Below, piece by piece: positions 5,217 to 8,200 of a stretch of DNA of 64,000 nt; within the stretch, counting starts at the first letter, position 1; the number at the start of each line of letters is the position of its first letter. The notes below the pieces were generated by a model. The model saw nothing but the letters and a program-made list of their open reading frames with translations. It had not been told where the DNA came from and searched no databases. Made by a program: the position numbers and the translations under genes. The DNA comes from a virus: the IMG/VR virus record IMGVR_UViG_3300042885_000570, positions 1 to 64,000 of that record; one strand, written 5' to 3'.

Positions 5217-8200
5217 ATTGCTTTAAGTATTTTATTTATTAAATTATTTAACTGAGCTTGAGTTTCAACTTTTTCAATTGCACCATATACATCATTAATA
5301 TCAATTCCCTTTTCTGCAAGTATTTGATCTAATTTGTAACTTGTAATACCACTTGATAATTGTTTTGTAAAGTTAATTAATTGTTTTCTATTAACTGGTT
5401 TATTAGATGGAATTTCTTCTACTTGAGCACCTGTAAACATATTTATGTTTTTAAGAAACATTGTACCTGAAGCTTCATCTACTAAATCATAAAGCTTCAT
5501 GTTATTTAATACCCATTTTCTTTGATCAACTATAAACTCTTTAGGTAACTTACCTTGTTTAGTTACTTCAGCATTGAATGCTTCCATGTCTTGATTTATC
5601 TCTGCTTTTTCAGAGGCAGCTTCAGCAAATGCAGCTTTTGCAAGAGCAATGACAGCTTTTCTATCACCATTATTCTCAGGCCATTTCATTATATCACCTG
5701 TTCTAACAGATATAATTACATCTTTATTATTAACAACATATTTTGCAGTTACTGCAATGCCTTCTTTATCTATATATGTTCTACGTTCTACTATAACTGC
5801 TCTACCTTGTTTTACTGCAAGATTAGCAAATATTTTATTTCTATCAGAACTAGCTTCTTTAAATACTTCAACACCATTTTTATTAAAGATACTAGCACCT
5901 TCAACAGTGTATGTTTGAGTTTTTTGACCTGTAGGTTTATAAGTTACTGTGTTATCAGATTGTACATTTTCATCAGTTGTTTCATCTTCAGTTTGTCTTT
6001 GTATATTTCCATTAACAAAGTTTTTAAATCCTTCTATATCTTGTTTATTTCCTAATATATGAGCATTATCAGTACTTAATATTGCATAATTAGTACTTTT
6101 ACCAGGATCTTTAATGTTTTTTGCTATTACAGCATCATTTGAGTTTTTTGCAGCAGTGTTAATAAGTCTAGTTAACTCTGTTTTAGCTCCTAATGTTCCA
6201 TCAGGCTGATCAACAAAAGGTTGTCCATTAAAATCTTTTATTATAGGATTTTTAATATTTAATACAACTTTTTTAGTATTATTAATAAAGCCTCCTTTTT
6301 TAATAAGTTCATCTATTTCCTTTTGTATTCTTTGCTTATCTTCAATAGAAACATTTTTTTTTCTTTTTAAATAATCAGTCATATTGATAATGTCTGTATA
6401 CATCATCTTACTATATTCTTCTTTAAGATAATTAATACTATCTATTGTATTTAAGCCTTTTTCTCTTAAACCTTTTAATTGTGGAACAATTTCAGGAAAT
6501 TGCTTTTTAAGAAGATTGTAATCTTCTTGTAAGTTATTAGACATAGACAACTTAAATAAACCTTTTGCAATTTTCAAGCGTTTTTCTTGTGTTCCTATTA
6601 AACTATAACTATGGGCTGTATATTCACTATCTGTAAAAAAAGTAGCTAATTCTGAATCAAATTTTTCATTAGTTGTAGATTTACCTGTATTAACCCCCCT
6701 TAGAGTTGAGTCAAATTTATCAAATAAATAAGGAGTACCATGATAAACAATATCTTTTACTATACTATTAGGAAAAATAGTATCAAGATATGCAGAGTAT
6801 TGTTCTGGTGTACCAATATCAGATAACTCTGGTCTATCTTTAAATAAATCTTCTACACCTTCTTTAACTTCAGTTACTGGAGCTTGTTGTTGAGTAGTAC
6901 TAAATCTAGCTTTAAACTGTTGTTCATTAGAAATATCTTTACCTTCTATGTTTCTAAATGTCCAACCTTTTGGAGCTAATATAGTAGTAGGTATACCTAA
7001 TTTAATTCCAGCTTTAGCTCCAGCTTCGTCAAATCCTGTCTGCCCCCCTGTTCTAATGGAAACTATTTTATTCTTAAGATCAGGAGATTCTAATACACCT
7101 TGCAATATTCTATAAGTCATTAAATCTACTTCTTCTTGACTCCATCCTGCATCTTTCATAGTATATATACCATTTCCTGCTATATTTAATGTTGTAGCAT
7201 TTACTGAATTTAATTGATCTACTACAATTTTAATTTGAGTTCTTATATTAGCTTTACTTATATCAGAGGTTTCTGTTTTTTTAGGAATATTTAAAGGTAT
7301 ATATTTTTTATTTTGACCTAATACAGAAGACTTAGTTAATCTTTCTCCAGCAGAATTAAAATCATAAGCTAAAGCAATAGTTGCATCTGCAGAAGCATTT
7401 TTAACAGTTCTATTTTTATATCCTGTTGTAGGTTCTTCTTGAAAGTCTATTTCAACACTAGTAGATGGTTGAGTATTCCAATCATATTTATTAATTAAAT
7501 AATCTAAAGCTGTAGCATGAGACGGTTCTCCAAGTTCTGCATAATATTGAAGTTGTCTTCCTTTTAATTTACCTGATTTTAAAACATCTAGAATAAATGC
7601 TTTTCTTTTTGGTTTAACATCTTTAAATTTATCAGTAGTTAACCAATCAATATAATTTATAACTGCTTCTTTAGTAGTATTAGTTTTTATAGTACCTGTT
7701 CTAATAAAATGAGCCCAAGGATTACTAAAACTATTTATATCACTAACCATTTCCATAGTATAAACTCTATTATTAGCTTTTGCTTCTTTTATATTAGCAT
7801 CCCTATCATATTTACCATCTTTAGTTTTAATATTAGAAATAACTACATTTTTATTTTCTAATTGAGAATATATATCATTACTATTAACACTAGTAGACGG
7901 TTGAGCACCAAAAGTCATCCCTTGACCACCGGCAGATACTACACCTTTAGGTACATATTTTTCATTTTCAACTTCTATATCAACATCTGTATCTTTTATG
8001 TTAGAAGCTTTGCGTGAAGCTCTTGATAAAATATAATTATTTTGACCAACACCATTTTCAAATAATAAATTATCTATTATATCTAATGTTTTATCTTTTG
8101 ACTCAGAATCTAAAGCTAAAAATTCTCTTGATGCAGGCTCTATTATTTCAAAGAATGTAGTATCTGGTAAGACATAGCTTAAACCATATTTAGTACTACC

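Follow-up and report, generated by a model that had tools for sequence, protein, structure and literature searches.

Introduction

Polyvalent proteins are large polypeptides of phages and conjugative elements that combine unrelated enzymatic domains and are predicted to act as infection begins (Iyer, Burroughs, Anand, de Souza and Aravind 2017, PMC5512222). The proteins are thus known from phages; how their domain sets change so fast is not. For one kinase-containing system, the same paper raises recombinational variability, by analogy with polymorphic toxins. I consider here a stretch of 64,000 nt of viral DNA (henceforth the window), taken from IMG/VR record IMGVR_UViG_3300042885_000570, which is 85,148 nt long and judged 72% complete. 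GC content is about 29%. The window contains a gene encoding a 4015-aa protein, a homologue of the virion RNA polymerase (vRNAP) of crAss-like phages, whose last quarter is a series of domains connected by a short in-frame linker. I will refer to the domains as cassettes and to the linker as the joint. The comparisons below demonstrate the anatomy of this array, the conservation of the joint at the level of DNA, and recombination breakpoints at joints, and they lead me to the view, held with good confidence, that the tail of the vRNAP is an array of single-domain cassettes exchanged between phages at DNA-conserved joints.

The protein resembles the polyvalent proteins in that unrelated enzymatic domains, including one apparently of the ART-PolyVal type, are fused together and to an RNA polymerase of the virion type. 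It goes beyond what is presented in the main text of Iyer et al. (PMC5512222) by its conserved joint, by the conservation of that joint as DNA, and by the analysis of breakpoints; the words linker, shuffling, DUF4326 and crAss are absent from that text, although the supplementary architecture tables of that paper may list such proteins. In the sources covered here, the closest mechanism in print is recombination at the conserved motifs of T-even phage adhesins, where the tail-fibre proteins gp37 and gp38 recombine within such motifs (Tetart et al. 1996, 1998, cited in Trojet et al. 2011, PMC3157838). There, as here, short conserved motifs within a gene separate variable segments. However, the adhesin motifs are described as parts of the structural core (glycine-rich motifs, His boxes) and are constrained as peptides, whereas the joint considered here is free as a peptide and fixed as DNA, and the adhesins swap host-range loops or segments of one fold, whereas here whole unrelated enzyme domains are concerned.

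The domains themselves are familiar from another context. For fusions of DUF4326, SLOG, NADAR and Macro domains in DNA viruses, the predicted role is the processing of ADP-ribose derivatives that serve in host immunity (Iyer et al. 2022, PMC9503650). The arrays considered here draw on the same set of domains; the main text of that paper describes no mechanism of exchange, and its supplementary architecture tables, too, may list such proteins. Integron gene cassettes, too, form arrays in which units that can be exchanged lie between repeated sites, but in integrons a tyrosine recombinase moves whole genes at structured attC sites, whereas the units here are in-frame domains of one open reading frame (ORF), the site is a coding linker of 21 nt, and no integrase was found in the record. 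Polymorphic toxins, marked by the VENN motif in CdiA and by PxxxxDPxGL in Rhs proteins, have a single variable C-terminal toxin, an immunity gene, and silent orphan cassettes downstream. In contrast, several cassettes stand here in tandem inside one phage protein.

A full-text literature search for four linker peptides returned unrelated matches only, and the literature on domain shuffling of polyvalent proteins at phage linkers, judged by titles and the beginnings of abstracts, held nothing that describes the joint. Polyvalent proteins and viral fusions of DUF4326, SLOG and NADAR are known, and a shared DNA-level joint with exchange of cassettes is new in the literature searched. The data point to a testable mechanism, in which a short coding joint, fixed as DNA and free as peptide, lets whole enzyme domains be exchanged in frame. 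If true, it would account for the way in which injected counter-defence kits turn over, and the joint would serve as a sequence handle by which to harvest domains of this sort from metagenomes (so far, 82 sites, flanking pieces in 58 clusters, and no Pfam family for 11 of 20 cassettes scanned). The old idea, reportedly due to Botstein, that phages evolve as modules with linker sequences would also gain new life, this time for protein domains.

Results and Discussion

The Repeat and the Joints within the Window

The initial annotation, made by a model from the letters alone, reported a 20-bp direct repeat that exactly brackets a DUF4326-like domain. The repeat (7454-7473 and 7886-7905) is real, and both copies lie in the frame of the 4015-aa ORF, 432 nt (144 codons) apart from start to start, but the copies are identical at 19 of 20 positions (95%) rather than at all of them. 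The single difference is synonymous, the Pro codon being CCA in one copy and CCG in the other. Read on the minus strand, the repeat encodes QPSTSV at residues 3119-3124 and again at residues 3263-3268. Extended to 21 nt, the copies begin with GCT and ACT, respectively, giving what I will call Joint 1 (7886-7906, minus strand; GCTCAACCGTCTACTAGTGTT, encoding AQPSTSV) and Joint 2 (7454-7474, minus strand; ACTCAACCATCTACTAGTGTT, encoding TQPSTSV). A third joint, of a second class, encodes TQQQAPVTEV (6866-6895, minus strand), and its QQQAPVTEV, a linker that the initial annotation had also picked out, lies at residues 3456-3464. The domains that follow the polymerase body are numbered D1 to D5 in the order in which they are translated, D1 being the one bracketed by Joints 1 and 2, and Joint 3 separating D2 from D3.

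With up to three mismatches allowed, the 21-nt pattern occurs at just these two sites in the window, as compared to an expectation of 0.02 from shuffled sequence; none of 100 shuffles contained two or more matches. Nonetheless, a repeated hexapeptide is by itself weak evidence, because another one, KAALEN, is also repeated in the same protein. The case for the joint rests on comparative data rather than on the repeat within the window.

The Joint as a DNA Element Shared among Phages

The exact 21-nt joint, ACTCAAYCNTCTACTAGTGTT, was found at 82 sites in 64 IMG/VR contigs. At all 82 the frame that reads TQ[PS]STSV is kept, within ORFs that range from 201 to more than 4200 aa, and the joint flanks many unrelated domains. 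The proposal that viral metagenomes would contain domains flanked by this linker was thus borne out. The same sequence has no site in 596 Gb of prokaryote genomes. Among the 57 distinct loci selected by the presence of a joint, the stretch examined takes in the polymerase body or the next giant gene in 29.

One locus (L004; numbers preceded by L denote loci) contains seven joints, all of them ACT CAA TCA TCT ACT AGT GTT apart from two single-base variants, codons that are also used in L001, L003, L005, L024 and the window. The QQQAPV class is less common, its 20-nt core being present in five IMG/VR contigs; the codons of Joint 3 recur at two other junctions in L001 and at one in L003.

Segments with a joint on both sides (n = 40) have a median length of 153 aa, the size of a single domain. 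Pieces that flank joints fall into 58 clusters by single linkage, a procedure that over-merged two of the clusters, since some segments hold several domains with unrecognised linkers, and that I use for the count only. When 20 inner cassettes were scanned against Pfam, three matched 2OG-Fe(II) oxygenase, two NADAR and two DUF7831, two gave matches below threshold, and eleven matched no family.

Mosaic Relatives

When IMG/VR was scanned with the C-terminal 963 aa as a protein guide, 35 loci were obtained, which were compared with the window segment by segment (tblastn). The initial annotation had reasoned that its view would fail if relatives had a fixed order of domains or if their breakpoints lay elsewhere than at the repeat. 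The order proved not to be fixed, and breakpoints do coincide with the repeat. One close relative, L001, is 94-98% identical to the window in the polymerase backbone and 99% in D1 (amino acid identity), as compared to 57% in the SLOG domain that follows (D2). It lacks D3 and has in its place a 2OG-Fe(II) oxygenase and an unnamed domain, after which D4 and D5 return at 81-82% identity. L002 shows the reverse pattern, with 53% identity in D1 and 82% in D2. A scan of metagenome contigs for close backbones found one more locus, L119, with the architecture of L001.

D1 is a cassette that has parted company with its surroundings. In L003 and L004, the polymerase body next to D1 is 47-50% identical in protein to that of the window, whereas D1 itself is 97-98% identical. 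At the level of DNA, D1 is 96.9-99.1% identical among the window, L001, L003, L004 and L100, and it is 97-99% identical in L058 as well; the carriers differ in context. Its neighbour may be SLOG (the window, L001), one of three different oxygenase cassettes (L003, L004, L024), or the end module (L100). The window matches L003 from 7905 to 7478 only (98.8%), L004 from 7903 to 7450 (97.6%), and L100 from 7911 to 7456 (96.9%), so that identity to these three begins at Joint 1, and the match to L001, 97% over 6.6 kb, comes to an end at 7468, inside Joint 2.

Four pairs of closely related loci, 93-99% identical in the DNA of their flanks, diverge in their cassettes from a joint onward: the window and L001 (at Joint 2), L004 and L081, L053 and L065, and L061 and L100. 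The array measures about 4.07 kb in L004 and about 1.16 kb in L081, although the two are 93-96% identical in DNA. L061 and L100 are 97-99% identical, yet one cassette in L061 stands where L100 has two, between a QPTQPP linker and TQSSTSV.

The Position of Breakpoints

To count breakpoints, 101 sequences (85 of them distinct) were compared all against all by megablast, keeping matches of at least 150 nt and at least 90% identity. The 61 non-redundant matches have 100 ends that lie away from the ends of loci. Thirty of these ends fall inside a joint, 57 within 5 nt of one, and 64 within 10 nt, a zone that accounts for 0.54% of sequence positions.

These loci are relatives, and L037 to L100 were picked for containing the joint. 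Since most loci were selected in this way, the count was repeated on 30 distinct loci found by protein similarity. Of the 13 ends counted there, 8 are no more than 10 nt from a joint, a distance that covers 0.26% of positions. Two of the five misses belong to a match in the next gene, two are inside the ART domain of L018 and L025, and one coincides with the end of D1, the linkers of both partners being non-canonical at that point. By either count (64 of 100 and 8 of 13), exchange junctions lie inside or next to a conserved motif, as they do in the T-even adhesins.

Contigs from Independent Assemblies

DNA nearly identical to that of the window is present in lake-water and freshwater metagenome runs, and contigs from four lake runs (X7, X9, X13 and X16) were compared with positions 6500-8900. 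A contig of 2917 nt from X7 spans 7092-8900 without a difference and bridges both Joint 1 and Joint 2. A 5341-nt contig from X16 has the form of L001 and departs from the window at 7468, and the likeness of a second X16 contig ends at 7905. A contig from X9 departs at 7475. One from X13, of 149 nt, passes from the end of D1 (7460) through a QQQ linker to the start of an ART-type cassette, with no SLOG domain between. The architecture of L001 is thus found again in separate assemblies, those of L119 and of the X16 contig.

These contigs bear on the most prosaic explanation, that the repeat is a chance recurrence of a low-complexity linker in AT-rich DNA or that the mosaics are chimeric metagenome contigs. 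It is true that KAALEN is repeated too, that many short imperfect repeats occur in the same 4 kb, and that cassettes shared at 97-99% identity could mislead assemblers as to linkage. However, the shuffled sequences never gave two matches, the 82 viral sites stand against none in the prokaryote genomes, and architectures recur in separate assemblies (L001, L119 and the X16 contig in one case, the window and X7 in the other). Furthermore, a chimera of this kind requires that the cassette be present in both genomes, and that sharing is the finding itself. I regard chance or artefact as very improbable.

Conservation as DNA or as Peptide

The initial annotation had taken identity at synonymous positions as a sign that conservation was at the level of DNA rather than of peptide only, and this was upheld, with more force than the window by itself could have given it. 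When IMG/VR was scanned again with the third positions of four codons freed, and five duplicate loci were dropped, 94 sites remained. Seventy-eight are in contexts of the polyvalent type; the other 16 are in unrelated ORFs and use other codons. The exact codon set ACT..TCT ACT AGT GTT is present at 76 of the 78 sites in context, and the two exceptions differ only in the first Thr codon. Codon usage in the three giant genes predicts the exact set at 5% of sites. As a control I used HILGNKQDIEGFK, an invariant peptide at the end of the ART domain, whose codons vary freely at synonymous positions in 23 loci, the major allele accounting for 61-74% at four codons.

Departures from the canonical joint tell the same story from the other side. 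A fuzzy search gave 105 joint sites, 28 of them variants, whose mismatches fall at codon positions 1, 2 and 3 in the numbers 26, 15 and 7. The changed codons in these 28 joints are nonsynonymous in 38 cases and synonymous in 3, where neutral change would be expected to be synonymous in 29% (nominal P = 8e-4). Residues are replaced liberally: T by A, S, I or D; Q by K; S by A, I, G or N; and V by I, A, E or T. The joint is thus free to vary as a peptide and is conserved as DNA.

This result is the main argument against reading the linker simply as a peptide, either a flexible spacer or a cleavage site for a zincin-type protease that would release the domains from the polyprotein, in which breakpoints fall only for the reason that recombinants elsewhere do not function and whose DNA identity hitch-hikes with recently spread cassettes. 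Such a reading draws on the Ser/Thr/Gln/Pro composition, which fits a flexible linker, and on an HExxH motif in the same ORF (HEAWH, residues 829-833). A zincin-like metallopeptidase domain is described as common, though not universal, in polyvalent proteins, and processing of those proteins by it has been proposed (Iyer et al. 2017, PMC5512222); the fused polyproteins of crAss phages are called "likely cleaved" in a preprint (Drobysheva et al. 2020). But variant joints alter the peptide freely, third positions are fixed at 76 of 78 sites while a constrained peptide of the same phages varies synonymously, and a Pfam scan of residues 720-1019, which surround the HExxH motif, gave no family, of peptidases or otherwise. 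I judge a mainly peptide function unlikely, with the proviso that a role for the peptide and a role in recombination could both hold.

A Possible Mechanism of Exchange

The exchange of cassettes at DNA-conserved joints, which I favour, might be pictured as follows. The last 900 or so residues of this giant polymerase of a freshwater crAss-like phage make up a polyvalent effector array between the polymerase body and a conserved end module, with DUF4326-like, SLOG and ART-PolyVal-type cassettes in that order, joined by the in-frame linker TQ[PS]STSV or by the rarer class TQQQAPV. Since each cassette is bounded on both sides by the same DNA, a crossover could fall inside the joint, whether in recombination between co-infecting phages or in unequal exchange between joints of one genome. 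The route may be homologous recombination on short (21-nt) homology or template switching (copy-choice) during replication. Either would give a seamless in-frame protein in which a cassette has been swapped, added or removed, and repeated exchange would homogenise the joints as a by-product. The likely outcome is a fast-changing kit of enzymes directed at NAD/ADP-ribose and at nucleic acids, which would enter the cell together with the polymerase. The initial annotation had spoken of the linkers as microhomology sites within an integrase-free array. Breakpoints do fall at the linkers, but 21 nt is short homology rather than microhomology; and no integrase was found, but that statement holds just for the 85 kb of the incomplete record.

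Several observations weigh against this account. The precise 432-bp deletion that would join 7905 to 7473, suggested at the outset as something to look for, is in none of the contigs from X7, X9, X13 and X16 (no evidence against the deletion, because contigs drop rare variants), and no recombination event has been directly observed. Thirty-six of the 100 match ends lie away from recognised joints, some at non-canonical linkers and some within genes, and in the window D3 passes into D4 with no canonical joint between them. The nominal probabilities overstate independence, inasmuch as the loci are related and L037 to L100 were chosen for the joint. Breakpoints would also accumulate between domains if nothing more than selection for folded in-frame proteins were at work. 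A stretch of 21 nt is on the short side for homologous recombination. Finally, the record has no match to RecT, ERF, AAA_24/Sak4 or RecA, nor to Phage_integrase (PF00589) or Resolvase (PF00239).

The sequences favour a joint that promotes recombination over one that merely tolerates it, because the peptide is unconstrained and because the joint is identical letter for letter across unrelated neighbours. Another idea is that a dedicated nuclease or site-specific recombinase recognises the joint, cuts there and so drives the exchange, which would make this a cassette system truly run by an enzyme. The sequence of the joint is unusually constant over 64 contigs and includes the palindrome ACTAGT, and nuclease genes have been reported at the boundaries of genetic exchange in phages (PMC10055350). 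Yet the record has no tyrosine or serine recombinase, candidates having been sought among six families only, and cassettes are also bounded by the second class of linker, QQQAPV, whose sequence is unrelated, and by non-canonical linkers. I consider a dedicated recognition site improbable. Avoidance of ACTAGT or CTAG was tried as a hint of a nuclease site and discarded: ACTAGT occurs 23 times in the window, as compared to 20.7 expected.

Exchange at the joints may conceivably go further, although I offer this as a tentative extension only. The 21-nt joint might be a selected recombination signal, a common plug of a freshwater crAss-like clade that makes an integrase-free domain integron. If that were true, the tail of the polymerase and the head of the next giant protein would draw in frame on a communal pool of dozens of counter-defence domains, open to any phage of the clade, and the joint would be kept by second-order selection for evolvability, possibly assisted by a nuclease.

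The Polymerase Gene

The ORF of the vRNAP homologue occupies 5210-17257 on the minus strand and encodes 4015 aa, with the array as its last quarter; the protein begins with MNITC and finishes with KAIC, the Cys codons being at 17243-17245 and 5213-5215. The polymerase body, the conserved part on which the array follows, comprises residues 1-3117 (7907-17257, minus strand) and contains, besides HEAWH, the motif DFDVD at residues 2317-2321. By tblastn, residues 1700-2700 match g066 of Cellulophaga phage phi14:2, annotated as "catalytic RNA polymerase subunit" (E = 3e-18; 23.8% identity over residues 123-634 of the query), and also the "putative RNA polymerase" genes of crAss-like phages. DFDVD is the form taken here by the catalytic motif DxDxD, which the phi14:2 study and Yutin et al. 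describe for the crAss-like vRNAP family and which is DFDID in gp66. This homology and this motif support the label vRNAP. Polymerases of the gp66 type have two double-psi beta-barrel domains in a single chain. The gp66 of phi14:2 is reported to be packaged in the virion (Drobysheva et al. 2020, preprint), and by homology the polymerase considered here may likewise be packaged, injected and essential. The whole protein had no match among PDB chains at an E-value of 0.01 (phmmer).

The C-terminal 3.4 kb had no match among GenBank phages by megablast. At the protein level (tblastn), the C-terminal 963 aa matched 84 records of GenBank phages, in the SLOG part only. In the PhiCrAssBcn phages of Bacteroides, the homologue of the SLOG domain is N-terminal in the "putative RNA polymerase", as in PhiCrAssBcn2 (a Kehishuvirus; L036, OQ221537.1, 8749-16575). 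Phage cr10_1 has a homologous SLOG domain inside a "hypothetical protein".

The Cassettes and the End Module

The ORF thus brings together the vRNAP body, a DUF4326-like domain, a SLOG domain of the cpYpsA type, a domain of the ART-PolyVal type, and two unnamed modules. Counter-defence activities directed at NAD/ADP-ribose may be supposed for the cassettes.

D1 is a Cys-less DUF4326-like domain (residues 3125-3261, 137 aa; 7475-7885, minus strand). The label, which goes back to the initial annotation, is weakly supported, the copy in the window having no Pfam match at E-values up to 10, while 5 of 11 family members weakly match DUF4326 (PF14216; best E = 0.006). The family retains the motifs GNPF and PSHATALDYL, which I take to resemble the DUF4326 pattern with Cys replaced, the Pfam relatives of D1 presumably using Cys. 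An AlphaFold2 model of D1 (pLDDT 82) found nothing in the PDB at an E-value of 0.001 by Foldseek; VIA-align gave weak rows, with a top Z of 3.7 and NADAR chains at 3.6 and 3.3. Absence of strong structural matches to such a model does not indicate a new fold. A search for homologues among proteins of 75-242 aa gave 12 matches, none with a Pfam family or an informative name.

D2 is a circularly permuted SLOG domain of the YpsA type (residues 3269-3454; 6896-7453, minus strand; PF12694, phrog_10774). It scores 41 bits against PF12694 when residues 3269-3455 are taken alone and 28.3 bits within the whole protein, the cut-off being 26.2, in agreement with the SLOG-like domain first proposed at this place.

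D3 is an ADP-ribosyltransferase-like domain, putatively of the ART-PolyVal type, with a helical insert (residues 3465-3757; 5987-6865, minus strand). It too had been proposed as ART-like from the start. The copy in the window scores 19 bits against ART-PolyVal (PF18760; E = 0.0025), below the cut-off of 31.2 bits, and 7 of 10 aligned members match, at best with E = 2.3e-13. Within the family His42 is invariant, Glu266 is conserved in at least 90% of the alignment, and an invariant YH and a nearly invariant FEPEQ lie close to the two ends. The AlphaFold2 model (pLDDT 69.5) gave nothing at an E-value of 0.001 by Foldseek, and the matches listed are mostly catalytic domains of tankyrase and PARP, but at E-values of 0.26 or worse. 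About 42 N-terminal and 25 C-terminal residues are invariant in the family, and the middle is hypervariable; the insert in the window copy is about 110 aa long.

D4 (residues 3761-3890; 5588-5977, minus strand) belongs to no named family and corresponds to the further domain that had been noticed at about 5640-5960. It is 81% identical in L001 and has weak matches in L021 and L061. D5 (residues 3891-4015; 5213-5587, minus strand) is the end module. By tblastn it is found at or near the end of the ORF in L001, L003, L012, L051, L061, L071, L075, L081, L085, L100 and L121, so that conserved parts close the array at either end. Neither D4 nor D5 matches a Pfam family, and an Atlas search gave no usable match for either.

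Some loci depart from the arrangement of the window in other ways. In L061 (582-761 and 963-1637) and in L100, a small module like D5 stands on both sides of the cassette slot, as if the slot had arisen within a module that was duplicated or split. In L008 (6019-6939), the SLOG cassette that it shares with L011 is split, residues 1-88 and 76-184 matching 357 nt apart, and the stretch that splits it looks like a small domain, perhaps one inserted within another. In many relatives, L009, L014, L017, L018, L020 and L022 among them, the ART-type cassette is N-terminal in the next giant protein (ORFs of 1765-2180 aa) instead of C-terminal in the polymerase. The array therefore straddles two giant genes, and the position of the stop and start shifts relative to it.

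The Neighbouring Giant Genes

The 4015-aa ORF is flanked by two further giant ORFs, of 2259 and 1099 aa, the latter encoded by the gene downstream and conserved in relatives. The 2259-aa gene contains a direct repeat of 25 nt at 18335-18359, 18761-18785 and 19013-19037, the second and third copies being 92% and 80% identical to the first, and the first two lying 426 nt apart. The pattern has no match in IMG/VR, and it is therefore not a shared joint of the TQPSTSV kind. A third large gene has a direct repeat of 40 nt (33708-33747 and 34731-34770, 93% identical, 1023 nt apart), and between its copies are diverged internal duplications of 82 nt and 36 nt.

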